Source: Blastocatellia bacterium
GTDB lineage: Bacteria; Acidobacteriota; Blastocatellia; UBA7656
Assembly (NCBI GenBank): GCA_963765495.1
Contig: CAVXWP010000009.1
Coordinates: forward strand, 1 to 64,000
Reading direction: 5' to 3'
Length of the DNA: 64,000 bases
The translations under genes were made by a program, and so were the position numbers. Under the pieces are notes generated by a model, which was given only the letters and a program-made list of their open reading frames with translations, had not been told where the DNA came from and did not search any database. Position 1 is the first letter of the stretch, and every line of letters starts with the position of its first letter. Positions 15,171 to 46,311 of this stretch are shown piece after piece.

Positions 15171-15207
15171 GAATTCAGCTACAGTGAGCATAGGCTGGGC
15201 CTAACTG

Positions 15208-16691
15208 CAATACCTGTCAAATAAGCCACGAGACGGCATTTATGGCATACTTTCGAGTTGATAGAAACGAAAGTTGTCAAGGAGCCGCCTCGCTTGAGTT
15301 ACAAAATACGCCATATTACCGATGAACGAAAGTTCTGTGATCATCTCTCTATTGATGCCATCTCTGATGCCGTCTCTATTGAATTAATCCAAGAGGTTCT
15401 TGATCTCCACAATGCCTCTCACAAACGACATCGCAAACTCACTATGAGCGCTGTCGTGCTCATTATCATCGCTATGAATCTGTTTTCACATTTCTCTATT
15501 GGACATGTCGTGCGGAGAGTCTTTCAGGGTTTGCGTTTCATCTGGCCTGATCCTGACTTTCCTCCTCCTAAACACAATGCAATATCTTATCGTCGTTACC
15601 AGTTGGGGCCTCGTCCTTTAGTCTCATTGTTTCATCGTGTTGCACAACCTATGGCAACAGATGAAACTCGTGGCGCTTTTGCATTTGGACTGCGATTAAT
15701 GGCCCTTGACGGCTCTATTGAAGAAGCCCCGGACACTCCGGAAAATGATGCTGCTTTTGGGCGGTTGGCTTCTGATCGCGGGAAGTGTTGCTTCGTGCAA
15801 ATTCAGGCTGTCTACCTTGTAGAATGTGGCACTCATGCCATTATTGATGCAGGATTTTGGCCTGCAAAAAGCAGTGAACGAGTTGGAGGTTTTCGCCTGC
15901 TAAGAAGCCTGGGAAAAGGGATGCTTTTGATGTGGGATAGAGGCTTTCACTCCTATGATATGGTAGTTGCGACACTTGAGCGAGGGTCTCAATGTCTTGG
16001 TAGATTGCCTGACAATGTGAAACCGGAACACCTTTGCACGCTAGAAGATGGAACGTGGTTAGGCTATATCAGACCAACACAAAAAGGACGGCGAAATAAA
16101 GAAGACAAACAGTTGGTTCGGATAATCTCTTACACTTTTACAGACCCGACCCAAGCAGGATACCAGAAGAGATACCGCATAGTCACAACACTATTGGATG
16201 AAAGGAAGTATCCGGCCAAAGAGTTGGTGTGTTTGTATCACGAGCGATGGGAAATCGAGATAGTCATAGATGAGATAGATACACATCAACGACTAGCAGG
16301 AAGGCCATTGAGAAGCCTAAAACCAGAGGGAGTCATACAAGAGTTATACGCATTATTGATAGCGCATTATGCAGTAAGAAAACTGATACACGAAGCAGCA
16401 AATGAGGCAGAAGTAGACCCGGATCGGATAAGTTTTGTAGGAGCATTGAGGATAATCCAAGAAGCAATACCAGAATTCCAAATGGTAGAAAAGGAGCAAA
16501 AGGAGCAATTATACAAGAGGCTATTGAGAGATATAGGAGAGCAAAGGTTACCAGAAAGGCGAGCCAGATCGAATCCGCGAGTAGTGAAGAGAAAGATGAG
16601 TGGGTTCAATCTGAAGCGACCACAGCATTACAACTGGCCCAAGCCACAGCTACGATTTTGTGATGCTATTTTGCTTATTTGACAGGTATTG
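15208..16691 (+). mobile_element. IS4-family element, copy 1
   Basis: Inverted repeats CAATACCTGTCAAATAAGC; the 10-bp TSD GGCCTAACTG is the attC R'' box. Confidence 0.92.
15258..16682 (+). CDS. IS4-family transposase
   Basis: ALDGS, WDRGF and LYHERWEIE motifs; R.NPRVVKRK tail. Confidence 0.92.
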   Translation: MIETKVVKEPPRLSYKIRHITDERKFCDHLSIDAISDAVSIELIQEVLDLHNASHKRHRKLTMSAVVLIIIAMNLFSHFSIGHVVRRVFQGLRFIWPDPDFPPPKHNAISYRRYQLGPRPLVSLFHRVAQPMATDETRGAFAFGLRLMALDGSIEEAPDTPENDAAFGRLASDRGKCCFVQIQAVYLVECGTHAIIDAGFWPAKSSERVGGFRLLRSLGKGMLLMWDRGFHSYDMVVATLERGSQCLGRLPDNVKPEHLCTLEDGTWLGYIRPTQKGRRNKEDKQLVRIISYTFTDPTQAGYQKRYRIVTTLLDERKYPAKELVCLYHERWEIEIVIDEIDTHQRLAGRPLRSLKPEGVIQELYALLIAHYAVRKLIHEAANEAEVDPDRISFVGALRIIQEAIPEFQMVEKEQKEQLYKRLLRDIGEQRLPERRARSNPRVVKRKMSGFNLKRPQHYNWPKPQLRFCDAILLI

Positions 16692-16692
16692 G

Positions 16693-16777
16693 GCCTAACT
16701 GCTCATTCCAGCGGACGCGCTTGCCACCGATTCATTATCCCGCTACTACCAGCGCGCCGCTGAACTCGTCGTTAGGC
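16693..16777 (+). repeat. attC site
   Basis: Host-type attC consensus. Confidence 0.93.
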
Positions 16778-16855
16778 ATTTGAAGTAATCCCTTCCGGCA
16801 AAACATTCTGAATTCTGTCTTCCTTTATGATAAGATTCGTCCTTGAGGTACTCTT

Positions 16856-19740: not shown

Positions 19741-19761
19741 GGTCGCAAGCTGAGAGCCGCG

Positions 19762-20800
19762 GGCTTTGTTGCGCAATTCGAGATGAAGATAGACTTCACC
19801 CAGACTTCGACCTCTTTTAGAATGCTACTGTGTCGGGCATCCCTAACTCGCTCATCCGATTCATCACCATGCACTTGATCCTTGCCTCCGTCATCTGTGT
19901 CTCCATCTTCCTACTGCTCATTCGCTCTCCTAATATCCCCTTCAGCCTGCCCATCTGTGTCTCTACCAAGCTCCTCTTGTGATACCCACTCTCTTTCTTC
20001 CACTCCTTCTCTCCTTTCTCTGCCTTCTCTCTTATCGCCAGGTTTCTTTCCCCCATATAATAATACTTGCTCTCGACTGCTCCCTTTCGCGGCGGGATCA
20101 ATGGCTTCGCTCCCTTCTTATAGATCGCCTTGTGACACTGGTTTGTATCATATGCTCCATCCCCATATATCCGACCTACTTCCCCTTCCGTTTCCTCTAT
20201 CAATCGAGGCATTACTCGCGGGTCAACAACTCCCTTGTCGGTCAACTCTACGGCTGTTATCTCCCACGTCTCTGTATCTACTGCTATGTGTAACTTCCTC
20301 CATTCTCGTCGTTTATCCTTCCCGTGTGTGCGAACTTTCCACTCCCCTTCTCCATAAATCTTGACTCCTGTTGAGTCTATTACAAGGTCCGCTATTGGCT
20401 TGCTTGTATCGCGCCTCAACCTTATCTCTAGCCCTGGGGCTCGCCTTGATACTCTACTGTAATCTGCAACGGGCAACTCTACTCCCATCAGCTTGAATAA
20501 TGAGCAGACGAATCCTTGAGTCTGGCGAAGCGGCAGATGGAAGACGGCCTTGATCGAGAGCATTGTTATGATAGCAGTGTCAGAATATCTCAATGGAGCG
20601 CCGGGGCGTGTTTGAGGAGAGCGGTGTAGCCACTGATCAAGGACATCTTGAGAGAGCCAGACTGTTAGACTACCACGATTACGAAGAGAGGAGTTATACT
20701 GTTTCCAGTTACGGGTGCGATAAGTGGGTTTGTTTTTCTTGGTCATAAAGAGATTATACAAACCCTCGCGCACCTGTTGCCATATTTACGCAACAAAGCC
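19762..20800 (-). mobile_element. IS5-family (IS903-like) element, copy 1
   Basis: Inverted repeats GGCTTTGTTGCG / CGCAACAAAGCC; ends 8 nt before an attC; no TSD seen. Confidence 0.9.
19817..20773 (-). CDS. IS5/IS903 transposase
   Basis: NWKQYN..L..RGSLTVW, IDSTGVK, WRKLH, DGAYD and YHKRSLVET motifs. Confidence 0.93.
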   Translation of the reverse strand: MREGLYNLFMTKKNKPTYRTRNWKQYNSSLRNRGSLTVWLSQDVLDQWLHRSPQTRPGAPLRYSDTAIITMLSIKAVFHLPLRQTQGFVCSLFKLMGVELPVADYSRVSRRAPGLEIRLRRDTSKPIADLVIDSTGVKIYGEGEWKVRTHGKDKRREWRKLHIAVDTETWEITAVELTDKGVVDPRVMPRLIEETEGEVGRIYGDGAYDTNQCHKAIYKKGAKPLIPPRKGAVESKYYYMGERNLAIREKAEKGEKEWKKESGYHKRSLVETQMGRLKGILGERMSSRKMETQMTEARIKCMVMNRMSELGMPDTVAF

Positions 20801-20808
20801 AAGGGCTT

Positions 20809-20894
20809 GCCTAACTGCTCATTCCAGCGGACGCGCTTGCCAACTTCTCGATTGCATCGGAGGCCACGGCGCGCCGCTGAACTCGTCGTTAGGC
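20809..20894 (+). repeat. attC site (IS110-A inserted at GTTAG^GC)
   Basis: Host-type attC; the R' box is regenerated because the IS starts with GC. Confidence 0.92.
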
Positions 20895-20959
20895 ATCCAT
20901 GAAGCAAGGCTTCTTCACGACGGATGAAAATGTCTGAGAGTTTATGTATCCTTCCTTCT

Positions 20960-21110
20960 GGTCATTGGCTGATAGGTCGTCGGGCCTTGGTGCCTTTAGC
21001 CCGGTCGTTAGTTTGACTTGGGGAGCCTTTTCAGGCATCACAACTTGTTGCTTCGAGCACGCATAGCAGTCTCTTTTGTTTTGAGGCTCCCCGCCAATGC
21101 CGAAAGGAGT
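20960..21110 (+). ncRNA. Putative bridge/seek RNA of IS110-A (approximate bounds)
   Basis: Guide-like segments GTCGTTAG (21004-11) and GAGCCT (21023-28) match the target; CATAGCAG (21062-69) and ATGCC (21097-101) match the element's own ends. Confidence 0.75.
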
Positions 21111-21116
21111 TCTATC

Positions 21117-22355
21117 ATGCAGATTCTTTACAACTCTTGCTGTGGTATTGATGTTCACGCTCGCACCGTTGTCGCCTGCCTCATCACTGACGGCAACAAA
21201 GAGGTTCGCACTTTCTCGACCATGACTGATGATTTGCTTGCCCTGCTCGACTGGCTCACTTCTCAAGGCTGCACTCACGTCGCTATTGAAAGTACTGGCG
21301 TTTACTGGAAGCCTGTTTTCAATATCCTCGAATCCTCCCTGGAGGTTATTTTGGTTAATGCCCGCCACGTCAAAGCTGTTCCTGGCAGAAAGACTGATGT
21401 TAAGGATTGTGAGTGGCTTGCTGACCTGCTTCGTCACGGTCTGCTTCGTCCCAGCTTTATCCCTCCTCCTCATATCCGTGAACTCAGGGATTTGACTCGC
21501 TACCGCCAGAGCCTTATCCGTGAGCAGACTGCTCTTGCCAATCGCATTCAGAAGTTGATTGAAAGCGCCAATATCAAGCTCGCTCAAGTCGCTAGTGATG
21601 CTTTGGGGGTTAGCGGCAGGCTGATGCTGAGAGCTTTGGCTGATGGTCAAACCGATGCTGACAAGATCAGCGACCTTGCTCGTCGGAGGATGAAGCGTAA
21701 GAAGGCTGACTTGAAGCGTGCTTTGCACGGTCGCCTCACTTCTGCCCAACGCTGGATTCTTAAAGAACTCCTCGATCAGTATGACTCGGTTGAATCCTCT
21801 ATTAAGAGGGTTGAAGAGAAGATCAGCCAGGAGGTCGAAACTTCCCCAGACCCTTTTGTTAAGCAAGCTGTTGAGCTTCTCGATTCTATTCCAGGAGTCG
21901 CAAAGACCTTAGCCCAGATCATTGTCTCTGAGATTGGAGTAGATATGAGCTGCTTCCCAACAGACAAGAATCTCTCAAGTTGGGCTTCGATCTGTCCCAG
22001 TAATAATCAATCGGCAGGAAAACGAAAGAGTGGAAGAACCCAAAAGGGCAATAGCTATCTAAAAGCAGCCCTTGTGCAGGCAGCCTGGGCAGCAACGCAT
22101 CAGAAGGATTGTTTCCTTGCAGCGAAGTACAAAAGGCTGGTCAAGAGAATGGGGAAGAAGAAGGCGCTGGTAGCAATAGCACATTCGATACTTGTGATTG
22201 TATATCACGTCTTAGAAGAGAGAGCCGGTTACAAAGAGTTGGGAGTAGATTATCTGGACAAAAGGAATGTAGAGAAGCAGCGGCGAAGATTAATCCGACA
22301 GCTTGAGGGGACGGGCTTGAGAGTAACTGTTGAAGAGGTCGAGCAAGCTGCCTGA
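21117..22355 (+). CDS. IS110 recombinase/transposase
   Basis: CCGIDVH, AIESTGVYW, KTDVKD and SIPGV...SAGK motifs. Confidence 0.95.
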   Translation: MQILYNSCCGIDVHARTVVACLITDGNKEVRTFSTMTDDLLALLDWLTSQGCTHVAIESTGVYWKPVFNILESSLEVILVNARHVKAVPGRKTDVKDCEWLADLLRHGLLRPSFIPPPHIRELRDLTRYRQSLIREQTALANRIQKLIESANIKLAQVASDALGVSGRLMLRALADGQTDADKISDLARRRMKRKKADLKRALHGRLTSAQRWILKELLDQYDSVESSIKRVEEKISQEVETSPDPFVKQAVELLDSIPGVAKTLAQIIVSEIGVDMSCFPTDKNLSSWASICPSNNQSAGKRKSGRTQKGNSYLKAALVQAAWAATHQKDCFLAAKYKRLVKRMGKKKALVAIAHSILVIVYHVLEERAGYKELGVDYLDKRNVEKQRRRLIRQLEGTGLRVTVEEVEQAA

Positions 22356-22457
22356 TCAACACCTACTCTTATTTTCATAGCAGGCTCTCGCTTTCGCAAT
22401 GATATAACTTGCCTTGATAAAAACTTCTTCCCCTATCATAATGCTGTTGAGGTCATT

Positions 22458-29988: not shown

Positions 29989-30082
29989 TGGTCAACTCAG
30001 GACTAGCAGGATATATGGGATTGACGCGCCACCTGTTTGCAACTCTCTGACATATAAGGAGATATATCCTACCCGGCAAGCA

Positions 30083-30167
30083 GCCTAACTGCTCATTCCA
30101 GCGGACGCGCATTCCAACGATTCATTATCCCTTTGCAACCAGCGCGCCGCTGAATTCGTCGTTAGGC
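30083..30167 (+). repeat. attC site (start of the IS110 stack)
   Basis: Host-type attC consensus. Confidence 0.92.
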
Positions 30168-30254
30168 ATCCATGAAGCAAGGCTTCTTCACATCGGATGA
30201 AAATAAGACACCCCGCTAATGAATTCAACAACTTAGCTCTTATTTTCATAGCAG
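30166..30254 (+). mobile_element. 89-bp ends-only IS110 mini-element with type A ends
   Basis: Left end GCATCCATGAAGCAAGGCTTCTTCAC and right end CTCTTATTTTCATAGCAG match IS110-A. Confidence 0.85.
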
Positions 30255-30565
30255 TTCATCATGAGCCTGCGGCTCACCTTCGAATGATGAAAATGTGTGA
30301 GAGCCATGATAGAATTTTGTATGTCGGTATGAAGGTCGAACGGTCCTTGGTGCTTCGAGCCTGTATAGCAGTTTGACCTGGGCATATTTCTGGTACCCCG
30401 AATTGTTGCCTTTGAGCACGTAGAGCAGACTCATGCTTATTAACCAATGCCCTACCGACAACCAGTTTGATGAAGCTGTGCAGAAGTAATATCGCACAGG
30501 CTCGGAGTTGTTTGTCTTCATCTACTCGTTATCAACATTTAGCACCCCTTTTATTTTCAGAGCAG
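30255..30565 (+). mobile_element. 311-bp non-autonomous IS110 element type B (bridge-RNA-like region, no recombinase)
   Basis: Four near-identical copies in the window; IS110-type ends; scaffold homologous to the non-coding ends of types A and C. Confidence 0.85.
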
Positions 30566-32055
30566 CCCGTCATGAAGCGAGGCTTCGCCACGAATGATGA
30601 AAATATGGGCGAGTTCGACTAAACTCTCTGTGGTCAGCGGCGTCAGATAAGGTCGTACAGCCTTGGTGCCTCAAGCCCGAATAGCAGCCTGACCTGAGAG
30701 CCTTTCTGGCACCACCAACTGTTGCTTCGAGCACGCATAGTAGACTCTTCATTAACAAGGCTCTCACGCCCTGGCCAGAAAGAGGTAGCTATGGAGATCA
30801 TCTATTCTTGTTGTTGCGGCCTCGATGTTCACGCCAAGACTGTTGTCGCTTGCCTCATTAAGCACGGCAAGAAAGAAGTCCGCACTTTCTCTACTATGAC
30901 CGATGACTTACTTCGTCTTTCGGATTGGCTCATAGCCGAAGGCTGCACGATTGCTGCAATAGAAAGCACGGGTGTTTACTGGAAGCCTGTCTTCAACATC
31001 CTTGAAGGCAACGTAGAAGTCTTGCTTGTCAATGCCCGCCACTACAAAGGTATTCCAGGCCGTAAGACCGATGTAAAAGATTGCGAATGGTTGGCCGATT
31101 TGCTGCGCCACGGTCTGTTAAAGCCCAGCTTCATTCCTCCGCTTGAGATAAGGGAGTTGAGAGAGTTGACACGCTATCGTCAGCAGTTGGTTAAAGAGAA
31201 TGCGACTATTGCCAATCGCATACAGAAGTTGATCGAGAGTGCCAACATCAAGCTCGGACAAGTCGCCACCGACGTCTTGGGAGTCAGTGGCAGGCAGATG
31301 TTGCGAGCACTGGCAGCAGGTGAGCGCGATGCCGAGAAGTTGAGTGAGTTTGCTCGCCGACGTATGCGAAGCAAGCGTCCCCAACTCAAACGTGCTCTTG
31401 AAGGCCGACTGACGAAATCTCAACGCTTTGTGCTGGGCGAGTTACTGACCCGATATGAAGAAGTAGAAGTTGCCGTCAAACGAGTCGAGCAACAGATTGA
31501 CGAGGAGGTGGGAGAGAGCGCCGACCCTTTTGTCTCTAAAGCCGTAGAACTGCTACAAACAATACCAGGGATAGGAGAGAGAGTGGCAGAAACAATAGTC
31601 TCAGAGATCGGAGTGGATATGGATCGCTTTCCGACAGACAGCCATATTTCGAGTTGGGCAGGGATGTGTCCGGGAAATAACGAATCGGCAGGCAAGCGGC
31701 GTAGCGGGAAGACGACGAAAGGGAATACCTATGTGCGGGAGGCGCTGGTACAAGCGGCGTGGGCAGCGAGTCATACAAAGCAGACATATCTGTCAGCGCA
31801 GTATAGAAGGCTAGCGAAGCGGCTGGGGAAGAAGAAGGCATTGGTGGCAGTCGGCCACACACTTTTGGTAATTGTTTATCATGTGATCGAACGACAGATG
31901 AGTTATAAAGAGTTGGGAGGAGATTACCTTGACAAACAGAATGTAGAGAGGCAAAGGAAGCGATTGATTGATCGGCTCGAAGCAACGGGATTGAAAGTCA
32001 CTGTTGAAGAGGTTCAACCTGCTGCGTGAGCCACATCCGGACATTTTCATAGTAG
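30566..32055 (+). mobile_element. IS110-family element type C
   Basis: Ends CCCGTCATGAAGCG...ATGAAAAT / ATTTTCATAGTAG; AG core at both junctions. Confidence 0.9.
30791..32029 (+). CDS. IS110 recombinase (paralog of the type A enzyme)
   Basis: CCGLDVH, AIESTGVYW, KTDVKD and TIPGI...SAGK motifs. Confidence 0.95.
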   Translation: MEIIYSCCCGLDVHAKTVVACLIKHGKKEVRTFSTMTDDLLRLSDWLIAEGCTIAAIESTGVYWKPVFNILEGNVEVLLVNARHYKGIPGRKTDVKDCEWLADLLRHGLLKPSFIPPLEIRELRELTRYRQQLVKENATIANRIQKLIESANIKLGQVATDVLGVSGRQMLRALAAGERDAEKLSEFARRRMRSKRPQLKRALEGRLTKSQRFVLGELLTRYEEVEVAVKRVEQQIDEEVGESADPFVSKAVELLQTIPGIGERVAETIVSEIGVDMDRFPTDSHISSWAGMCPGNNESAGKRRSGKTTKGNTYVREALVQAAWAASHTKQTYLSAQYRRLAKRLGKKKALVAVGHTLLVIVYHVIERQMSYKELGGDYLDKQNVERQRKRLIDRLEATGLKVTVEEVQPAA

Positions 32056-34887: not shown

Positions 34888-35691
34888 GGCCCCGATGCAG
34901 GATGAAAACGGGCAGATGGTGGAGCGAACTAGAGGAACTCCGCAGGGGGAGTAGTCAGCCCGCTGCTTGCGAATCTGTTCCTACACTACGCGTTTGATGT
35001 CTGGGTAAGTCGCAACCTGCCGACTGTGCCGTTCTGCCGCTACGCCGATGATGGACTGCTGCACTGCAAGACTCGGAGGCAGGCGGAGTATGTCATAAAA
35101 GTCGTGGGGAGAAGGTTTCAAGAGTGTGGGTTAGAACTGCACCCTGAGAAATCGAAGATCGTATACTGCAAAGACATCAACCGCAGAGGCGACTATGACA
35201 ATATCTCGTTTGACTTTCTCGGCTATACATTTCGGCCACGCTCATCAAAGGACAAATATGGGCGACGGTACGTCAACTTCTCGCCAGCCGTGAGCAATTC
35301 GGCAAAGAAAGCGATGCGGCAGGAAATAAGAGGCTGGCACCTACAGCTGAAGAACGACAAGAGGCTGGAGGATCTGTCGAGGATGTTTGATCCGATATTG
35401 AGAGGGTGGGCGAGCTATTACGGCAAGTTCTACAAAAGCGGCATGAGGGGGATTTGGAATCACTTTGATATGTATCTCACACGATGGGTAATGCGCAAAT
35501 ACAAGAGGCTGGCCGGGCATCGGCGGAGGGCAAGCAAGGAGTTAGGCCGAATCGCGCGGGATAAGCCGAATCTGTTTGTACATTGGCGGCAAAGGGAAAT
35601 GCGAGCGGTTGGATGATGGAGCCGAATGAGGGGAGACCTTCACGTTCGGTTCTGAGAGGGGCCAGGGGAGAGACTCCCCTGGTCTACTCAC
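34888..35691 (+). mobile_element. Group II intron 3, 3' half (RT and X domains, no HNH), 5'-truncated
   Basis: GTPQG (frameshift in a G-run), SPLLANLFLHY, RYADD and FDFLGY motifs; ORF ends at 35616; domain V GAGCCGAATGAGGGGAGACCTTCACGTTCGGTTC; domain VI ends ...CTACTCAC. Confidence 0.88.
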
Positions 35692-36170
35692 CCCTACATT
35701 CGGTTGCTAGCCAACTGGATGTATCTGGTGGCGATTATCGATTGGCATTCGCGTTATGTCGTGAGTTGGGAACTCGATGACAGCCTGGAAGTGGATTTCG
35801 TCCTCTTGGCCGTCGAGCGGGCCTTGCGCCAAGCGAAGCCGGAAATCTTTAACTCCGATCAAGGGAGCCAGTTCACGAGCCAGGCGTACATCTCGCTGGT
35901 CGAAGGAGCCGGGGTGCGAATCAGTATGGACTCGAAAGGGCGAGCCTTTGACAACATCTTCACCGAGAGATTATGGCGAACCGTCAAATATGAAGACGTC
36001 TATATAAAAGGTTACACGTCGCCGCGCGAAACGCGGGTTGGAATAGGCAGCTATCTGGAGTTCTATAATGACAGGCGCGTGCATCAAGCCTTGGCTTATC
36101 GAACGCCAGCCGAAATCCACTTCGGGCTTTGAATTGAACAAGAACCATGTTTATAGCCGACTCAAATGAA
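35692..36170 (+). pseudogene. IS3 orfB 3' exon, right end deleted
   Basis: (T)YIRLLANWMYLVAIIDW...NSDQGSQF...DNIFTERLWRTVKYE; same element as 2304-2533. Confidence 0.85.
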
Positions 36171-36664: not shown

Positions 36665-36672
36665 TGCTTGCT

Positions 36673-37711
36673 GGCTTTGTTGCGTAAATATGGCAACAGG
36701 TGCGCGAGGGTTTGTATAATCTCTTTATGACCAAGAAAAACAAACCCACTTATCGCACCCGTAACTGGAAACAGTATAACTCCTCTCTTCGTAATCGTGG
36801 TAGTCTAACAGTCTGGCTCTCTCAAGATGTCCTTGATCAGTGGCTACACCGCTCTCCTCAAACACGCCCCGGCGCTCCATTGAGATATTCTGACACTGCT
36901 ATCATAACAATGCTCTCGATCAAGGCCGTCTTCCATCTGCCGCTTCGCCAGACTCAAGGATTCGTCTGCTCATTATTCAAGCTGATGGGAGTAGAGTTGC
37001 CCGTTGCAGATTACAGTAGAGTATCAAGGCGAGCCCCAGGGCTAGAGATAAGGTTGAGGCGCGATACAAGCAAGCCAATAGCGGACCTTGTAATAGACTC
37101 AACAGGAGTTAAGATTTACGGAGAAGGGGAGTGGAAAGTTCGCACACACGGGAAGGATAAACGACGAGAATGGAGGAAGTTACACATAGCAGTAGATACA
37201 GAGACGTGGGAGATAACAGCCGTAGAGTTGACCGACAAGGGAGTTGTTGACCCGCGAGTAATGCCTCGATTGATAGAGGAAACGGAAGGGGAAGTAGGTC
37301 GGATATATGGGGATGGAGCATATGATACAAACCAGTGTCACAAGGCGATCTATAAGAAGGGAGCGAAGCCATTGATCCCGCCGCGAAAGGGAGCAGTCGA
37401 GAGCAAGTATTATTATATGGGGGAAAGAAACCTGGCGATAAGAGAGAAGGCAGAGAAAGGAGAGAAGGAGTGGAAGAAAGAGAGTGGGTATCACAAGAGG
37501 AGCTTGGTAGAGACACAGATGGGCAGGCTGAAGGGGATATTAGGAGAGCGAATGAGCAGTAGGAAGATGGAGACACAAATAACGGAGGCAAGGATCAAGT
37601 GCATGGTGATGAATCGGATGAGCGAGTTAGGGATGCCCGACACAGTAGCATTCTAAAAGAGGTCGAAGTCTGGGTGAAGTCTATCTTCATCTCGAATTGC
37701 GCAACAAAGCC
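36673..37711 (+). mobile_element. IS5-family (IS903-like) element, copy 2
   Basis: Near-identical to 19762-20800; CTTGCT repeated at the flanks; 8 nt from an attC R'' box. Confidence 0.9.
36700..37656 (+). CDS. IS5/IS903 transposase
   Basis: Differs from copy 1 by one residue in the ORF track. Confidence 0.93.
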   Translation: MREGLYNLFMTKKNKPTYRTRNWKQYNSSLRNRGSLTVWLSQDVLDQWLHRSPQTRPGAPLRYSDTAIITMLSIKAVFHLPLRQTQGFVCSLFKLMGVELPVADYSRVSRRAPGLEIRLRRDTSKPIADLVIDSTGVKIYGEGEWKVRTHGKDKRREWRKLHIAVDTETWEITAVELTDKGVVDPRVMPRLIEETEGEVGRIYGDGAYDTNQCHKAIYKKGAKPLIPPRKGAVESKYYYMGERNLAIREKAEKGEKEWKKESGYHKRSLVETQMGRLKGILGERMSSRKMETQITEARIKCMVMNRMSELGMPDTVAF

Positions 37712-37736
37712 CTTGCTCCGGTGTATTGTCGAATTG

Positions 37737-38961: not shown

Positions 38962-39272
38962 CTGCTCTGAAAATAAAAGGGGTGCTAAATGTTGATAACG
39001 AGTAGATGAAGACAAACAACTCCGAGCCTGTGCGATATTACTTCTGCACAGCTTCATCAAACTGGTTGTCGGTAGGGCATTGGTTAATAAGCATGAGTCT
39101 GCTCTACGTGCTCAAAGGCAACAATTCGGGGTACCAGAAATATGCCCAGGTCAAACTGCTATACAGGCTCGAAGCACCAAGGACCGTTCGACCTTCATAC
39201 CGACATACAAAATTCTATCATGGCTCTCACACATTTTCATCATTCGAAGGTGAGCCGCAGGCTCATGATGAA
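38962..39272 (-). mobile_element. IS110 non-autonomous type B, copy 2
   Basis: Same sequence as 30255-30565; abuts the right end of IS110-A copy 2. Confidence 0.87.
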
Positions 39273-41859
39273 CTGCTATGAAAATAAGAGTAGGTGTTGA
39301 TCAGGCAGCTTGCTCGACCTCTTCAACAGTTACTCTCAAGCCCGTCCCCTCAAGCTGTCGGATTAATCTTCGCCGCTGCTTCTCTACATTCCTTTTGTCC
39401 AGATAATCTACTCCCAACTCTTTGTAACCGGCTCTCTCTTCTAAGACGTGATATACAATCACAAGTATCGAATGTGCTATTGCTACCAGCGCCTTCTTCT
39501 TCCCCATTCTCTTGACCAGCCTTTTGTACTTCGCTGCAAGGAAACAATCCTTCTGATGCTTGCTGCCCAGGCTGCCTGCACAAGGGCTGCTTTTAGATAG
39601 CTATTGCCCTTTTGGGTTCTTCCACTCTTTCGTTTTCCTGCCGATTGATTATTACTGGGACAGATCGAAGCCCAACTTGAGAGATTCTTGTCTGTTGGGA
39701 AGCAGCTCATATCTACTCCAATCTCAGAGACAATGATCTGGGCTAAGGTCTTTGCGACTCCTGGAATAGAATCGAGAAGCTCAACAGCTTGCTTAACAAA
39801 AGGGTCTGGGGAAGTTTCGACCTCCTGGCTGATCTTCTCTTCAACCCTCTTAATAGAGGATTCAACCGAGTCATACTGATCGAGGAGTTCTTTAAGAATC
39901 CAGCGTTGGGCAGAAGTGAGGCGACCGTGCAAAGCACGCTTCAAGTCAGCCTTCTTACGCTTCATCCTCCGACGAGCAAGGTCGCTGATCTTGTCAGCAT
40001 CGGTTTGACCATCAGCCAAAGCTCTCAGCATCAGCCTGCCGCTAACCCCCAAAGCATCACTAGCGACTTGAGCGAGCTTGATATTGGCGCTTTCAATCAA
40101 CTTCTGAATGCGATTGGCAAGAGCAGTCTGCTCACGGATAAGGCTCTGGCGGTAGCGAGTCAAATCCCTGAGTTCACGGATATGAGGAGGAGGGATAAAG
40201 CTGGGACGAAGCAGACCGTGACGAAGCAGGTCAGCAAGCCACTCACAATCCTTAACATCAGTCTTTCTGCCAGGAACAGCTTTGACGTGGCGGGCATTAA
40301 CCAAAATAACCTCCAGGGAGGATTCGAGGATATTGAAAACAGGCTTCCAGTAAACGCCAGTACTTTCAATAGCGACGTGAGTGCAGCCTTGAGAAGTGAG
40401 CCAGTCGAGCAATAATAGAATTAGATAGTTTTTTGTTTGTTGTGTTGGTGTTTTTTTTTTGTTTTTTTGTGTGTTGGTGTGTTTGGTTTTTTTTGAAGTT
40501 GATATTTAGTTGTTGTTGTTTTATGGATAGGAGTAGAATATAGATGATTTTATGTTTAGATGGATGTTTATGATATATGTTGTGTGTAAAAAAATATTGG
40601 TTGATTTTTTATGTTGAGTGAGTAGGATTGATTTAAGTAAGGATTGTGAGATGTGTTGGTAGTAGGTTGAGTTATTTGATATTAGTGAGTAAGTTTTTAT
40701 TATAAGTTGTTTTAGTTATAGTGAGGAGATGTTATAAGTATGGATTGATGATATTATATAAAGTTATTATTTTACGTTTTGTGGTGTATTAGTGTTTGTT
40801 TAGTGGGAGTATTATGAAGTTTGTTGATATTTTGTGATGTTATATGTGTGAAGGGAATAAAAGTGATATATTTGGTTTTAATTTGAGTTGTTGTGATTTA
40901 GTGTATGTTTATATTGTATTTGTTGTGAGGTTTGTTTATTATGATTGTAAATTAAGTTTGGGGTATTGATATACTTATATCTGATTTGTGGTGTGTGGAT
41001 GTATTGGTAGTATTGTTGGATTGTTATTAGTGTTATATATTGAGTTGGGAATTGGATTAGAGTTTGGAGTATTTTTTCGTGATGGTAGTATTAGAATAGG
41101 TGTTTGTTAAAGTTTGTTTAGGAATTTGGAACTCTGATTAGGGGAGTTACTTCACTAGTTTGTAATATATATATCGACTGAAAATGGTTGGGTTGTAAAT
41201 CAGTATGGATGGTAAAGGTTGTGTTTTGGATAACATCTTTACGTAGTGTTTATGGAGAAGTATCAAGTATGAAGAGGTCTATCTGTATTCTTATGTTTCA
41301 CGAAGAGAAGCTCGACAAAACATTACTAGGTATATGTGATTCTATAATGAAGAGCGTCTACATCAGTCACTCGATTACTGGACACCGGTTGAAGTCGTAT
41401 TTCAGTTGTGAGAATGAGAAACATCAGCGAAACGATTCTATAATGAAAGGAGAAAAGTCCACTTTAGGCATAGGTAATTTTTTGTCTTGATTTTGTGGAC
41501 CACCTTAAGGGCAAGCAAATCATCAGTCATGGTCGAGAAAGTGCGAACCTCTTTGTTGCCGTCAGTGATGAGGCAGGCGACAACGGTGCGAGCGTGAACA
41601 TCAATACCACAGCAAGAGTTGTAAAGAATCTGCATGATAGAACTCCTTTCGGCATTGGCGGGGAGCCTCAAAACAAAAGAGACTGCTATGCGTGCTCGAA
41701 GCAACAAGTTGTGATGCCTGAAAAGGCTCCCCAAGTCAAACTAACGACCGGGCTAAAGGCACCAAGGCCCGACGACCTATCAGCCAATGACCAGAAGGAA
41801 GGATACATAAACTCTCAGACATTTTCATCCGTCGTGAAGAAGCCTTGCTTCATGGATGC
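39273..41859 (-). mobile_element. IS110 type A, copy 2, interrupted by an IS3 insertion
   Basis: Matches copy 1 apart from the 40412-41507 insert and a frameshift near 39557; inserted at an attC GTTAG^GC. Confidence 0.9.
40412..41507 (+). mobile_element. IS3-family element with a corrupted, C-depleted sequence
   Basis: Right end TTGTCTTGATTTTGTGGACCACCTTA; relics of the QVWGIDITY, NSDQG, SMDGKG..DNIF and KYEEVY coding motifs. Confidence 0.7.
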
Positions 41860-41942
41860 CTAACGACGAATTCAGCGGCGCGCTGGCGGCAAAGGGAGAA
41901 TGAGGCGGTGGAATGCGGGTCCGGTTGATGGACCAGTTAGGC
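41858..41942 (-). repeat. attC site (chimeric arms)
   Basis: Reverse complement reads GCCTAACTGGTCCATCAACCGGACCCGC...GCGCGCCGCTGAATTCGTCGTTAGGC. Confidence 0.88.
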
Positions 41943-41943
41943 C

Positions 41944-43427
41944 CAATACCTGTCAAATAAGCAAAATAGCATCACAAAATCGTAGCTGTGGCTTGGGCCA
42001 GTTGTAATGCTGTGGTCGCTTCAGATTGAACCCACTCATCTTTCTCTTCACTACTCGCGGATTCGATCTGGCTCGCCTTTCTGGTAACCTTTGCTCTCCT
42101 ATATCTCTCAATAGCCTCTTGTATAATTGCTCCTTTTGCTCCTTTTCTACCATTTGGAATTCTGGTATTGCTTCTTGGATTATCCTCAATGCTCCTACAA
42201 AACTTATCCGATCCGGGTCTACTTCTGCCTCATTTGCTGCTTCGTGTATCAGTTTTCTTACTGCATAATGCGCTATCAATAATGCGTATAACTCTTGTAT
42301 GACTCCCTCTGGTTTTAGGCTTCTCAATGGCCTTCCTGCTAGTCGTTGATGTGTATCTATCTCATCTATGACTATCTCGATTTCCCATCGCTCGTGATAC
42401 AAACACACCAACTCTTTGGCCGGATACTTCCTTTCATCCAATAGTGTTGTGACTATGCGGTATCTCTTCTGGTATCCTGCTTGGGTCGGGTCTGTAAAAG
42501 TGTAAGAGATTATCCGAACCAACTGTTTGTCTTCTTTATTTCGCCGTCCTTTTTGTGTTGGTCTGATATAGCCTAACCACGTTCCATCTTCTAGCGTGCA
42601 AAGGTGTTCCGGTTTCACATTGTCAGGCAATCTACCAAGACATTGAGACCCTCGCTCAAGTGTCGCAACTACCATATCATAGGAGTGAAAGCCTCTATCC
42701 CACATCAAAAGCATCCCTTTTCCCAGGCTTCTTAGCAGGCGAAAACCTCCAACTCGTTCACTGCTTTTTGCAGGCCAAAATCCTGCATCAATAATGGCAT
42801 GAGTGCCACATTCTACAAGGTAGACAGCCTGAATTTGCACGAAGCAACACTTCCCGCGATCAGAAGCCAACCGCCCAAAAGCAGCATCATTTTCCGGAGT
42901 GTCCGGGGCTTCTTCAATAGAGCCGTCAAGGGCCATTAATCGCAGTCCAAATGCAAAAGCGCCACGAGTTTCATCTGTTGCCATAGGTTGTGCAACACGA
43001 TGAAACAATGAGACTAAAGGACGAGGCCCCAACTGGTAACGACGATAAGATATTGCATTGTGTTTAGGAGGAGGAAAGTCAGGATCAGGCCAGATGAAAC
43101 GCAAACCCTGAAAGACTCTCCGCACGACATGTCCAATAGAGAAATGTGAAAACAGATTCATAGCGATGATAATGAGCACGACAGCGCTCATAGTGAGTTT
43201 GCGATGTCGTTTGTGAGAGGCATTGTGGAGATCAAGAACCTCTTGGATTAATTCAATAGAGACGGCATCAGAGATGGCATCAATAGAGAGATGATCACAG
43301 AACTTTCGTTCATCGGTAATATGGCGTATTTTGTAACTCAAGCGAGGCGGCTCCTTGACAACTTTCGTTTCTATCAACTCGAAAGTATGCCATAAATGCC
43401 GTCTCGTGGCTTATTTGACAGGTATTG
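41944..43427 (-). mobile_element. IS4-family element, copy 2
   Basis: Matches 15208-16691; the flanks differ (CAGTTAGGCC vs GGCTTAGGCT). Confidence 0.92.
41953..43377 (-). CDS. IS4-family transposase
   Basis: Same protein as 15258-16682. Confidence 0.92.
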   Translation of the reverse strand: MIETKVVKEPPRLSYKIRHITDERKFCDHLSIDAISDAVSIELIQEVLDLHNASHKRHRKLTMSAVVLIIIAMNLFSHFSIGHVVRRVFQGLRFIWPDPDFPPPKHNAISYRRYQLGPRPLVSLFHRVAQPMATDETRGAFAFGLRLMALDGSIEEAPDTPENDAAFGRLASDRGKCCFVQIQAVYLVECGTHAIIDAGFWPAKSSERVGGFRLLRSLGKGMLLMWDRGFHSYDMVVATLERGSQCLGRLPDNVKPEHLCTLEDGTWLGYIRPTQKGRRNKEDKQLVRIISYTFTDPTQAGYQKRYRIVTTLLDERKYPAKELVCLYHERWEIEIVIDEIDTHQRLAGRPLRSLKPEGVIQELYALLIAHYAVRKLIHEAANEAEVDPDRISFVGALRIIQEAIPEFQMVEKEQKEQLYKRLLRDIGEQRLPERRARSNPRVVKRKMSGFNLKRPQHYNWPKPQLRFCDAILLI

Positions 43428-44798
43428 GGCTTAGGCTGACACATCCAAACGCAGCAGGTATAGATATAGGTAGTGATTCACATTTCGTGGCCGTGCCGCC
43501 AGATAGAGCAGAAAATCTGTGAGAGAGTTCTCCTCATTCACCTGTGACCTCAACCGACTTGCAGATTGGTTGAGCGAGTGTGGGGTAGATACAGTAGCGA
43601 TGGAGTCAACAGGAGTCTACTGGATCGCGCTGTATGAGTTGCTGGAAAGTCGAGGATTTGAAGTGAAGTTAGTAGACGCACGACGAGTAAAGCATGTACC
43701 AGGACGAAAGACCGATGTATTGGACTGCCAGTGGTTGCAGGAATTGCATACATACGGACTATTAGAAGGAGCATTTCGACCACCCGACCAGATAATAGAG
43801 TTGCGAAGCTATGTGAGGCAGAGAATGATGTTGGTCAGATATGCAGCAAGCCACATACAGCACATGCAGAAGGCGCTGACACAGATGAACCTGAAACTGC
43901 ATAACGTGATAAGCGACATAACAGGGGCGACAGGGATGAGGATCATCAAAGCGATATTGGCAGGAGAGCGAGACGTGCAGGTGCTAGCGGCGAACCGAGA
44001 TGCGAGGTGTAAGAATTCACGGGAGGTAATAGCCAAGTCGTTGGAAGGCAATTATAGAGAAGAACTTTTGTTTGAGTTAAGACAAGGCGTAGAGTTGTAT
44101 GAGAGCTATCAGGAGAAGATAGCAGAATGCGACCGGCAGATAGAGCGGTAGTTGGGGAGGATGGCAAAGATGGGAGAAGTGGAAAACAAAGCCTTGCCGA
44201 AGGCCAGAAGAGCAAGCAAGGGAGAAGGAAATCAGCCGAGATTTGAGTTGAGGAAATATCTGTATGAGATGATGGGTGTAGACCTGACACAGATAGATGG
44301 GATAAGCGCATACACGGCCCTGGTAGTAGTCAGTGAAATAGGGACAGACATGAGCGCGTGGGAGAGTAGTAAGCAATTCGGGTCATGGCTATGTTTGTCA
44401 CCAGGAAGCAAGAAAAGCGGAGGCAAACAGCTATCAACAAAAAGCAAGCCGGGAGCGAACCGAGTAGCAAATCAGTTGAGGATGTCAGCCCAGGCATTGA
44501 GTAATTCACAGAGCGCATTAGGAGGATATTACCGAAGGATGAAGGCGCGATTAGGAGGACCAAAAGCGATAACAGCGACAGCCTACAAGCTGGCGAGGTT
44601 AATCTATAGCATGATGAAGAATGGAACAGAGTATGTAGATAGAGGGCAGGAAGCATATGAGGAGCAATATCGGGAAAGAGTGTTGAAAAATCTAAAGAGA
44701 AGAGCAAGACAGATGGGCTATGAACTGGTGAAGAGCGATCTACAGAAGGGTTTTCTCGTCCTGTAGAATCAATAGCTTACGGGGAAGTTTCTTAAGAA
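43428..44798 (+). pseudogene. IS110 type E, 3' part (frameshift near 43517, stop at 44149)
   Basis: HPNAAGIDIG, AMESTGVYW, KTDVLD and SGGK motifs; the N-terminus is found at 47972-48042. Confidence 0.85.
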
Positions 44799-45512: not shown

Positions 45513-45823
45513 TTGCTCGGAAAATAAAAGGGGTGCTAAATGTTGATAACGAGTAGATGAAGACAAACAACTCCGAGCCTGTGCGATATTACTTCTGCAC
45601 AGCTTCATCAAACTGGTTGTCGGTAGGGCATTGGTTAATAAGCATGAGTCTGCTCTACGTGCTCAAAGGCAACAATTCGGGGTACCAGAAATATGCCCAG
45701 GTCAAACTGCTATACAGGCTCGAAGCACCAAGGACCGTTCGACCTTCATACCGACATACAAAATTCTATCATGGCTCTCACACATTTTCATCATTCGAAG
45801 GTGAGCCGCAGGCTCATGATGAA
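45513..45823 (-). mobile_element. IS110 non-autonomous type B, copy 3
   Basis: 311-bp unit, in tandem with copy 4. Confidence 0.87.
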
Positions 45824-46133
45824 CTGCTCTGAAAATAAAAGGGGTGCTAAATGTTGATAACGAGTAGATGAAGACAAACAACTCCGAGCCTGTGCGATAT
45901 TACTTCTGCACAGCTTCATCAAACTGGTTGTCGGTAGGGCATTGGTTAATAAGCATGTGTCTGCTCTACGTGCTCAAAGGCAACAATTCGGGGTACCAGA
46001 AATATGCCCAGGTCAAACTGCTATACAGGCTCGAAGCACCAAGGACCGTTCGACCTTCATACCGACATCAAAATTCTATCATGGCTCTCACACATTTTCA
46101 TCATTCGAAGGTGAGCCGCAGGCTCATGATGAA
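45824..46133 (-). mobile_element. IS110 non-autonomous type B, copy 4
   Basis: 310-bp unit, head-to-tail with copy 3. Confidence 0.87.
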
Positions 46134-46220
46134 CTGCTCTGAAAATAATCGCCTAAGTTATTGATTCTACAAGAATCGCTTATTTTCGTCGTTCGTGGCG
46201 AAGCGACCCCTTCATGACGG
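46134..46220 (-). mobile_element. 87-bp ends-only IS110 mini-element
   Basis: Reverse complement CCGTCATGAAGG...ACGAAAATAAG...TTATTTTCAGAGCAG, directly after an attC GTTAG. Confidence 0.8.
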
Positions 46221-46311
46221 CTAACGCCCGGCATCAGTGGGCGCGCGTAGAGCACTCAAAGAAACCGTGTGAAATCCGCTTCGCGCGCTCCACTGCACGC
46301 CATTGTTAGAT
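46219..46311 (-). repeat. attC site (non-host type)
   Basis: Reverse complement ATCTAAC...CAGTGGAGCGCGCG...CGCGCGCCCACTG...GTTAG. Confidence 0.88.

Follow-up and report, generated by a model that had tools for sequence, protein, structure and literature searches.

Ends-only IS110-type elements of less than 100 bp at attC sites of a Blastocatellia genome: members of a widespread family with a central IHF-like box

Introduction

Bridge (IS110) recombinases are under development as programmable genome editors. On another side of transposon biology, Correia elements and RIP/BIME elements are miniature repeats that carry an IHF site, and IHF sites lie near the ends of IS10 and gamma-delta. Among IS110-type elements, a miniature precedent is MITEPpu9, the MITE-like ssr9 module of ISPpu9 (IS110 family, Pseudomonas putida), for which the available text of PMC12288879 reports minicircles and tandem copies, as well as a location either right downstream of the full element or alone, sometimes as a tandem duplicate. 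For the IS1111 group, the accessible part of PMC11187229 lists as criteria subterminal repeats of 11-13 bp, with 6-7 bp between the left repeat and its tip and 3 bp on the right, and a gene followed by a long non-coding region. It also presents an engineered ISEc11 mini-IS, in which 84 bp of left end and 71 bp of right end surround a cargo gene (PMC11187229). Finally, the bridge-RNA rule, as given in the excerpted text of PMC11208160, states that in every loop the 5' side pairs with the bottom strand over 8-9 nt, core included. Our literature search found neither an IHF role in the IS110 family nor a description of miniature IS1111-attC derivatives; the supplementary lists of PMC11187229 and PMC11208160 may name relatives.

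Here, we analyse two very short elements, hereafter minis, in a window of 64,000 nucleotides (the whole stretch of DNA studied) from a Blastocatellia bacterium of environmental soil. Both consist of little more than IS110-type ends inserted at attC, and they very probably belong to a conserved, widespread and non-autonomous IS110 family of ends-only elements.

Results

Two tiny elements of 89 and 87 bp had been proposed to be inserted at attC GTTAG^ in this window, and this was confirmed in both cases: each is built from two ends, left and right, around a short centre, and starts right behind an attC-type ...CGTTAG (Table 1). Compared with the full-length element IS-A, mini-1 is identical at 37 of its first 39 nt and at its last 18 nt (18/18). 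The ends of mini-2 are mixed, the left one matching IS-B (33/39) and the right one a 311-bp element (16/18). From left to right, a mini could be read as a 4-6-nt left tip, a 5-bp hairpin (H1), a left subterminal repeat (ATGAAAAT...), a loop of ~20 nt, a right subterminal repeat (...ATTTTCAT) and a 5-nt tail ending in the core AG. The minis lack both hallmarks of a classical MITE, a target-site duplication and inverted repeats at the very termini. They are called MITE-like here because their repeats are located subterminally, at 31 nt from one tip and 5 nt from the other, and because the core AG is all that recurs at the two junctions.

Table 1. Coordinates of the two minis, their insertion sites and the related elements of the window
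Feature	Position	Strand	Description
attC site	30083..30165	+	3' GTTAG = mini-1 insertion point; in 19-copy attC repeat family D1
Mini-1	30166..30254	+	89-bp ends-only IS110-type element, type I; end matches to IS-A
Mini-1 hairpin H1	30174..30186	+	Left-end hairpin GAAGC-AAG-GCTTC; predicted single-stranded DNA fold, stem covariation
Mini-1 left subterminal inverted repeat	30196..30208	+	5' arm of predicted hairpin H2
Mini-1 IHF-like box	30223..30235	+	ATTCAACAACTTA, 8/9; in predicted H2 loop, 32 nt from right end
Mini-1 right subterminal inverted repeat	30238..30249	+	3' arm of predicted H2
Mini-1 right-end tail	30250..30254	+	AGCAG; last AG = putative core dinucleotide
311-bp element	30255..30565	+	Ends and bridge-RNA-like leader, no recombinase gene; guides TATAGCAG (30364), TAGAGCAG (30421)
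IS-B	30566..32055	+	Full-length IS110-type element; guides AATAGCAG (30680), CATAGTAG (30736)
IS-A	20893..22383	+	Full-length autonomous partner of mini-1 (putative); 412-aa recombinase (DEDD_Tnp_IS110 + Transposase_20), 224-nt leader
IS-A leader segment	21004..21011	+	GTCGTTAG, putative left target guide = attC left flank
IS-A leader segment	21062..21069	+	CATAGCAG, putative left donor guide = right end of IS-A and mini-1
Box of element E	44767..44779	+	AATCAATAGCTTA, perfect; right behind stop codon of frameshifted IS110-type element E
Two 311-bp element copies	45513..46133	-	Head to tail, right behind mini-2
Mini-2	46134..46220	-	87-bp ends-only element, type I; left end IS-B-like, right end 311-bp-element-like
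Mini-2 IHF-like box	46154..46166	-	AATCAATAACTTA, 9/9
attC-like site	46221..46311	-	TCTAAC...GTTAG, upstream of mini-2

Mini-1 contains no ORF of at least 80 aa, and a scan of positions 30050-30650 revealed no promoter-like or terminator-like site inside it. The only promoter-like site on the + strand of this interval lies in the 311-bp element, where the left subterminal repeat (ATGAAA) provides the first hexamer and is followed, after 17 nt, by TAGAAT. In an Rfam scan of positions 20000-47000 (E <=1), the minis and the IS leaders had no hit to any RNA family; a group II intron domain at 35617-35692 was the one solid match in this region. Mini-1 had no blastn match in plasmids, and the mini pattern described below had none in viral contigs. 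Contigs assembled from 4 sequencing runs, which cannot show rare forms, contained neither a mini-less form nor a right-end-to-left-end junction.

The leaders of four elements were compared (IS-A, IS-B, the 311-bp element and a 1497-bp IS of genome G061), and their guide segments fall in the same two alignment slots. In each leader, one 8-nt segment is identical to the right end of its own element (7/8 nt for the 311-bp element), while the second is identical to the left flank of the insertion site for IS-A and the G061 IS, a pattern that fits the bridge-RNA rule as published (PMC11208160). The five IS-A copies with an intact left end (5/5), plus mini-1, all follow ...GTTAG, and insertion into attC is orientation-specific. 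The IS-A segment that matches the left flank of attC would act as target guide, and the one that matches the right end common to IS-A and mini-1 as donor guide. The leader comparison yielded neither the right donor guide nor the right target guide of the 311-bp element. On the right side, the hexamer GAGCCT occurs in the leaders of both IS-A and IS-B, and its complementary sequence AG+GCTC stands right of several attC sites.

Since the minis possess neither a recombinase gene nor a leader with guide segments, and hence no bridge RNA, a full-length relative must supply both parts; the dependence in trans announced by the original prediction is in this respect well supported by the sequence. The minis are presumably mobilised by full-length relatives, and IS-A would be the partner that provides recombinase and bridge RNA to mini-1. 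For mini-2, this genome offers neither one guide RNA that would match the two ends nor a single cognate partner. The best plasmid-borne relatives of the IS-A recombinase are at most 52% identical and annotated only as IS110 family.

The 311-bp element abuts mini-1, and IS-B is inserted behind the right end of this 311-bp element. The nested insertions are explained by the target guides TATAGCAG (311-bp element) and AATAGCAG (IS-B), which match the right end of mini-1 and IS-A. Five of the six copies of the 311-bp element are located directly behind such a right end. The proposal that the 89-bp mini seeds the target of further insertions is supported by its right end, which is the target-guide sequence of IS-B and of the 311-bp element; once inserted, a mini would offer its right end as a landing site for both.

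A regular-expression scan of the whole genome (all 17 contigs) detected these two minis only, which are unlike each other, and an identical-copy test found each of them once in this genome. Many more are present elsewhere. The survey relied on a pattern that ignores the box, CATGAAG-N20-30-GAAAAT-N20-50-ATTTTCAKAG(YAG), which occurs in 4 of 61 related genomes, this one counted, and in 4 of 53 genomes of the family, with 1-2 minis at most in each family genome. A genome contig collection yielded 52 pattern stretches, 15 of which have the full right end and the left-end hairpin. The remaining 37, without the ...AGYAG end or the hairpin, are chance matches or other repeats and were discarded, among them four copies of an Ignavibacteria repeat (L022, L031, L049, L050) and L023. 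The 55 metagenome stretches all look genuine (55/55). After counting same-place duplicates once (L001/L058, L005/L061, L002/L055/L059, L003/L013/L060, L004/L056), genomes and soil metagenomes together contain 60 distinct minis of 75-96 bp, a count that overstates independent support because the sequences are related to one another. They fall into four architectural types, namely type I (n=27), type II (n=13), type III (n=15) and type IV (n=4), plus one unclassified member (L011); L113, attributed to type II by the rules, was reassigned by eye to type I, with ATTCAATGATTTA at the box position. The minis are consequently members of a family of 60 and not the one-off internal deletions that had been considered as an alternative at the outset.

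Identical cores are found between different flanks, a sign of mobility for the family (three sites for the L067 core, two each for those of L063 and L108). L087 and L097 are separate loci, and on the contig of L097 an 87-bp mini is present in five identical copies, of which four are arranged head to tail. Inspection of upstream flanks by eye placed 26 of the 27 type I minis behind TTAG and a left tip of 3-7 nt, and L018 behind ...GTTA. The inner right part of mini-1 is closer to other minis (26/32 nt) than to IS-A (21/32), and that of mini-2 matches other minis at 29/32 versus at most 18/32 for any local IS. In genome G061, an 85-bp mini is located 42 bp from the 1497-bp IS, and the two have the first 38 nt and the right end in common; the mini displays a perfect type I box, which its neighbour lacks. 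Judged by these comparisons, the minis are a lineage of their own, a family rather than an accident.

Boxes were scored against the IHF consensus WATCAANNNNTTR given in the original prediction (nine specified positions and four N positions); this consensus is proteobacterial, and the hosts here appear to be Acidobacteriota (Blastocatellia). The three boxes quoted in the original prediction are all present, i.e. ATTCAACAACTTA (8/9), AATCAATAACTTA (9/9, reverse complement of the top strand) and AATCAATAGCTTA. Five relatives of element E, with 45-51% identity, have no box. Among type I minis, the box is perfect in 19 of 27 (0.17 expected) and scores at least 8/9 in 25 of 27 (2.47 expected, both from mononucleotide shuffles); in every case it lies on the top strand, at a distance of 32-33 nt from the right end. 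On average, each of the nine specified positions of this box holds 1.74 bits of information and each of the four N 1.12 bits, and conservation reaches past the IHF consensus, upstream positions -5 to -1 carrying 0.9-2.0 bits and position +1 carrying 1.54 bits. In type III, the best score is 8/9 (8/15 minis), and the box is missing from all 13 type II and all 4 type IV minis, whose lengths are 86-89 bp. The anticipated conservation of the box consequently applies to type I, where it is conserved and fixed in position, and fails for types II and IV. As variable stems beside a near-invariant box indicate selection, the type I box is, on the evidence of these alignments, a real and position-fixed motif under selection.

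Two further ideas about the box were discarded. By eye, no convincing pairing made the box either the -35 or the -10 element of an outward promoter or of one formed at a junction, and the stretch GGCATCACAACTTG of the IS-A leader, which resembles the box, is a chance occurrence, being absent from IS-B and the 311-bp element. The host genome encodes five proteins with a match to the HU/IHF-family Pfam domain at E <=1e-26, plus a sixth, weaker one in a 472-aa frame. On the IHF-beta model, the highest score is 114.2 bits (cut-off 115); for IHF-alpha models, the best score by a protein ranking alpha first is 79 bits (cut-off 111).

DNA folding predicted two hairpins, H1 and H2, in types I, II and IV and in L011, with z-scores of -1.7 to -6.5 in 14 of the 17 minis folded, whereas type III minis fold no better than shuffled sequence (z -0.2 to -0.9). 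H1 covaries across the left ends of the IS clade, with six fully complementary 5-bp stems (GAAGC, GACGC, GCAGC, GCGCC, GAGGC and GAGCC). Because it lies upstream of the predicted leader promoter and is kept in minis, H1 is a DNA feature and not a guide-RNA feature. The H2 arms past a common AAAAT vary between types yet stay complementary, and in type I 90.9% of the cells are paired versus 42-51% when the partner column is slid. Most type I H2 pairs are invariant, and 3 of 18 change on both sides, a number reached by 132 of 500 shuffles. The box sits in the loop of the predicted H2; formation of this hairpin would leave the box single-stranded and no longer a possible substrate for IHF. The box-less types II and IV have longer stems. 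Finally, lengths of 84-89 bp reveal no helical phasing and spread over more than half a helical turn, which neither supports nor excludes a duplex circle.

Discussion

The leading reading of the central box in type I, although a tentative one, is that it is a candidate site for an architectural protein of the IHF/HU family at the right end. Binding and bending at this site would help a segment of ~85 bp to bring both ends into one recombinase complex, and it is plausible that IHF permits a double-stranded circle of less than 100 bp. This reading has to be confronted with others. The view that the minis are dead remnants, i.e. independent internal deletions without function or mobility, could draw on this genome, with two copies unlike each other, and on the one or two copies at most of the family genomes. 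It is highly improbable and already contradicted by the family counts: one architecture is common to 60 distinct copies, identical copies occupy different sites or form tandem arrays, central modules are nearer to other minis than to the local IS, and the contrast of variable stems with a near-invariant box suggests selection. A second view, which we consider unlikely, holds that the element's own machinery, its recombinase or its guide RNA complex, reads the box as a cis site, or that the box is left over from the recombinase stop codon and right-end spacer, its match to the IHF consensus being coincidental. Full-length relatives do show a partial ATCAA/ATCAC past the stop codon, 25-32 nt from the right end (6-7/9 in each of IS-A, L124, L125 and L136), and the perfect box of element E is placed directly past a stop codon. 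Moreover, the conserved block of the minis is longer than the IHF consensus, and a target stem-loop is a structural recognition layer in one IS110 element, according to the available part of the published work. Yet the motif is missing from 5 of ~9 full-length right ends (IS-B, L126, L127, L128 and L129) and from the five relatives of element E, the minis fit the consensus better than their own partners do, and no such subterminal protein site appears in the accessible portions of the IS110-family literature examined.

The serious rival to a circle assisted by IHF is a single-stranded DNA route taken by the same non-autonomous family, to which we give some credence without favouring it. One strand would be excised as a circle of 85-90 nt or transferred directly, H1 and H2 would bring the ends together as DNA hairpins with no need for an IHF bend, and the box in the loop would serve another purpose, such as protein recognition or second-strand priming. 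The shared fold of types I, II and IV and L011, the covariation of H1 and its retention in minis, the complementarity of H2 arms that differ between types, the longer stems of box-less types and the wide spread of lengths are all consistent with this route. In addition, two preprints report, in the parts accessible, that IS621 and CazIS110 form circles which are mainly single-stranded, or use copy-out, and rolling-circle copying of a tiny circle would yield head-to-tail arrays such as that of L097. Against it stand the mostly invariant type I H2 pairs, whose double changes are readily equalled by shuffling, and the weak folding of type III. Besides, conservation of the box dips at its N4 positions, which suits a duplex-binding protein better than a loop, and one of these preprints, as far as its available text goes, expects a double-stranded circle before insertion.

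A broader reading, which is rather doubtful at this stage, would regard the minis as natural minimal substrates of bridge recombinases, with an evolved central module, at the bottom of a three-tier parasitic hierarchy. The module, an IHF-type bend site inside an extended inverted repeat, would replace the 1.4 kb that separates the ends of a full element. Full elements would give the recombinase, 311-bp elements guide RNA only, and the ends-only minis would form the last tier, guide RNAs of the upper tiers being programmed to land on mini right ends.

For the IS110 field, natural donors that keep ~39 nt of left end and ~45 nt of right end may mark out the essential cis sequences. These include features, among them the covarying left-end hairpin and the subterminal box, that are not described in the accessible parts of the IS110 literature examined. 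If true, the need for a bending protein or an 85-nt single-stranded circle would bear on how IS110 elements excise. To judge from the guide segments in IS-B and the 311-bp element, some IS110 elements are programmed to insert beside relatives, and integron attC sites seeded by minis could in this way turn into growing pile-ups of insertion sequences.

With regard to known systems, IS-A resembles the IS1111-attC group (Tetu and Holmes 2008, as cited in the available text of PMC11187229) by its membership of the IS110/IS1111 superfamily and by insertion into attC in one orientation. It departs from the IS1111 layout as listed there, with repeats of 8 bp that lie 31 nt from one tip and 5 nt from the other, and its non-coding region shows the opposite arrangement, with 224 nt upstream and 28 nt downstream of the gene. 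As for the box, a consensus IHF-type site at a fixed place in a miniature repeat is also found in QMITE1 of Coxiella, as far as the accessible text of PMC5896051 describes it. QMITE1, Correia, RIP/BIME, IS10 and gamma-delta are DDE-transposon or REP systems, whereas the minis are IS110 elements and their box is putative. Like the minis, MITEPpu9 is non-autonomous, flanked by copies of IS110-family ends and presumed to be moved in trans (available text of PMC12288879). It differs by its sRNA gene, so that the guide-bearing 311-bp element is what comes closest to it here; the minis have no RNA gene in their 75-96 bp and display a central box and an extended subterminal palindrome. Finally, the engineered ISEc11 mini-IS, in the part of PMC11187229 that is accessible, provides the nearest parallel of design: both are ends-only donors, those of ISEc11 moving with recombinase and guide RNA supplied in trans, and the natural minis keep only ~39 + ~45 nt and carry no cargo.

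Results

The two ends-only IS110-type elements of the window, mini-1 and mini-2, each start directly after the GTTAG of an attC-type site, as first noted, and the three IHF-like boxes reported with them were all recovered (Table). A scan of all 17 contigs of the genome counted these two minis and no third one. A wider search with a pattern made of the end motifs only, the box being left out, revealed that they are not one-off internal deletions, as 60 distinct minis were obtained after duplicate removal and identical cores were found at different sites (the L067 core with different flanks at three sites, the L063 and L108 cores at two each). The pattern matched in 4/61 relatives and in 4/53 genomes of the family. 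Matches comprised 52 stretches in genome contigs, 15 of them complete at the right end and bearing the left-end hairpin and the other 37 set aside, and 55 in metagenomes, all with the full architecture. No mini was found on plasmids or viral contigs. A repeat of ~90 nt in the Ignavibacteria records L022, L031, L049 and L050 matched a loose pattern and lacks both the hairpin and the ...AGYAG end.

Besides one other mini (L011), four architectures were distinguished. Type I (n=27, L113 being assigned by hand; 84-89 bp, one of 96 bp) targets GTTAG, carries the box and includes both window minis. Type II (n=13; 86-88 bp) also targets GTTAG, is devoid of the box and has a longer inverted repeat. 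Type III (n=15; 75-95 bp) targets GGGGTCAG and displays a related motif, TTTCAA-N4-TTAG, and type IV (n=4; 89 bp) comes from one Chitinophagales lineage and is without the box. One metagenome contig bears an 87-bp type I mini in five identical copies, of which the first precedes an 18-nt repeat of the left flank of the target and the other four stand head to tail. Either repeated insertion beside a right end already in place or a small circle copied by a rolling-circle route would fit this arrangement.

Table. Minis, boxes, partner elements and guide slots (window positions unless a locus is named)
Feature	Position	Strand	Description
Mini-1	30166-30254	+	89 nt; directly 3' of attC-type GTTAG
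Mini-2	46134-46220	-	87 nt; directly 3' of attC-type GTTAG
Box ATTCAACAACTTA	30223-30235		mini-1; 8/9 specified positions
Box AATCAATAACTTA	46154-46166		mini-2; reverse complement; 9/9 specified positions
Box AATCAATAGCTTA	44767-44779		directly 3' of stop codon of frameshifted IS110-type gene E
IS-A	20893-22383		left end compared for hairpin H1: 20901-20913
IS-A slots			first GTCGTTAG, attC left flank; second CATAGCAG, own right end
IS-B	30566-32055		
IS-B first slot AATAGCAG	30680		
IS-B second slot CATAGTAG	30736		own right end
311-bp element	30255-30565	+	leader aligned
311-bp element	38962-39272	-	
311-bp element	45513-45823, 45824-46133	-	
311-bp element	contigs C16, C2		
311-bp element slots			first TATAGCAG; second TAGAGCAG, own right end at 7/8
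G061 IS	L125:1267-2763		1497 bp
G061 mini	L125:2806-2890		85 bp
G061 element slots			CACGTGAG, its flank; CATCAGAG, its right end
Type I array	L097:1877-2329		five minis

The product of IS-A, a full-length element present in five copies with an intact left end, contains DEDD_Tnp_IS110 and Transposase_20 domains. Mini-1 is identical to it at 37/39 of the first 39 nt and at all of the last 18 nt (18/18). Its inner right part agrees with other type I minis at 26/32 nt versus 21/32 with IS-A, and that of mini-2 at 29/32 nt with minis L088 and L111 versus at most 18/32 with any local IS. In genome G061, a mini lies 42 bp from a full-length IS in inverted orientation, right ends facing; it equals this neighbour at its first 38 nt and right end, but its type I box is perfect, whereas the IS shows no more than GATCACAACTTTG there. 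So the ends of the minis track the local partner, and their centre is inherited among minis. A single palindromic target accommodates the G061 IS in one arm and the mini in the other, and AACGTGAG directly precedes each of them.

The non-coding part of IS-A is made of a 224-nt leader 5' of the gene versus 28 nt 3' of it. Alignment of this leader with those of IS-B (a second full-length element) and of a gene-less 311-bp element disclosed a common scaffold with two variable 8-nt slots, and the slot rule also holds in a fourth element, from G061 (Table). We infer that AG is the core dinucleotide. The minis end ~60 nt before the guide segments and thus carry no guide; from this layout, we infer on good grounds that they would rely on a partner for both recombinase and guide RNA, in line with the trans dependence first proposed.

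The 311-bp element combines IS110-type ends with a bridge-RNA-like leader and has no recombinase gene. Five of its six genomic copies directly follow a right end of the IS-A/mini-1 type (two after IS-A, one each after mini-1, mini-2 and another copy) and the sixth follows attC. It is a guide-only element, parasitic on other insertion sequences. One copy of IS-B comes after a 311-bp element's right end and another (contig C1) after ...CACCACAG; the target-guide slot of IS-B, too, specifies the right end found in relatives, not attC. Both IS-B and the 311-bp element hold, in their first (target-guide) slot, the sequence of the right end common to IS-A and mini-1, and the guide sequences thus support the claim that mini-1 seeds the target of the elements first labelled B and C. 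A second route to such tandems, according to a preprint, is 'half-match' recombination, in which the donor arm alone is recognized. In a sediment metagenome contig aligned to window 30225-30398, another type I mini is joined to a relative of the 311-bp element (27 unaligned nt ending ...CTAATAGAA, then the shared TCAACAACTTAG), and the tandem of mini and guide element therefore recurs elsewhere.

The expected conservation of the box held for type I and failed for types II (0/13) and IV (0/4). In type I, it is perfect in 19/27 minis and matches at least 8/9 positions in 25/27, for which shuffles predict 0.17 and 2.47; its strand is constant and its distance to the right end is 32-33 nt throughout. 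Among full-length relatives, a partial motif (6-7/9) is present in IS-A, L124, L125 and L136 and none in the others; the box is absent from five relatives of element E. In the genome, five proteins match the HU/IHF-family Pfam domain (E <= 1e-26), with a sixth, weaker match within a 472-aa frame; the best one scores 114.2 bits on the IHF-beta model against a cut-off of 115.

Folding as single-stranded DNA predicted the same two hairpins in types I, II and IV and in L011: H1 at the left end, and H2, whose arms are the subterminal repeats and whose loop contains the box. Fold z-scores ranged from -1.7 to -6.5 in 14 of the 17 minis folded, and type III folded no better than shuffled sequence. H1 (5-bp stem, 3-4-nt loop, 8-10 nt inside the left end) is also carried by full-length elements, and its stem shows full covariation: six distinct 5-bp versions, all complementary, occur across the clade (left ends of IS-A, IS-B, the 311-bp element, L069, L090, L124, L129, L137 and L139). 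H1 is probably a structural signal in DNA, since the promoter-like site of the leader is downstream of it. In the two type I helices, 90.9% of cells are paired versus 42-51% with partners slid; most pairs are invariant, and the one figure that stands out is the number of cells in which both sides changed (14 versus 7.8 in shuffles). In type II, H2 is lengthened to ~18 pairs, with a few compensatory changes.

The window, the first 64 kb of its contig in a 7.3-Mb genome, holds a chromosomal integron array densely populated by insertion sequences. Its 83-nt attC-type repeat (GCCTAAC...GTTAG) occurs in 19 copies on the + strand up to ~33.5 kb and in more copies on the - strand past 36.5 kb. Three insertion sequences (one with IS4-type domains, one with DDE_Tnp_1_5, and IS-A) form inverted pairs in mirrored order (15199-16779 and 41856-43436; 19761-20801 and 36672-37712; 20869-22383 and 39273-41883). 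Together with the reversal of attC orientation between the two halves, this suggests that the array contains a large inverted duplication or an inversion. A group II intron domain at 35617-35692 (Rfam RF00029, 58.2 bits), a reverse-transcriptase/maturase/HNH ORF at 1192-2223 and a 174-nt stretch duplicated at 99% identity (2300-2473 and 35997-36170) probably reflect two group II intron copies. A ~1.1-kb insert (40412-41507), which may be an intron fragment, splits the second IS-A copy; the end of this insert (41442-41503) is 76% similar to 2468-2529, beside the intron-type ORF region.

Discussion

How could such a small element be mobilized? During excision, according to PMC13626964, the substrates cross one another within an X-shaped complex. 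Published work also shows that insertion can be gated by a stem-loop next to the target. An 85-bp duplex loop presenting two sites to one tetramer would need sharp bending, for which a putative architectural-protein site with constant spacing to the right end would be a reasonable solution. We tentatively read the box as such a site, a plausible assignment short of an even chance. In type I, its information content averages 1.74 bits over the nine specified positions and 1.12 over the four N positions, and drops to 0.13-0.95 at neighbouring stem-extension positions; this is the profile expected of an IHF-type site. However, conservation extends to five positions upstream of the box and to the G that follows it, the second position is always T in type III, and types II and IV lack the box. 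Alternatively, the vehicle may be an 85-nt single-stranded circle, which would require no bending and under which the hairpins make sense. Preprints propose that excision may release mainly a single-stranded circle. We consider this route only slightly less probable than the bending-site reading.

In the literature searched, we found no description of IS110-family elements below 100 bp and no role of IHF in this family. IHF sites are known near the ends of IS10 and gamma-delta, and the mini box recalls them. Targeting of attC is common to IS-A and the IS1111-attC group, but IS-A fails the IS1111 structural criteria given in PMC11187229. The nearest described case is MITEPpu9 of ISPpu9, which, according to PMC12288879, carries an sRNA gene and is therefore closer to the 311-bp element than to the minis.
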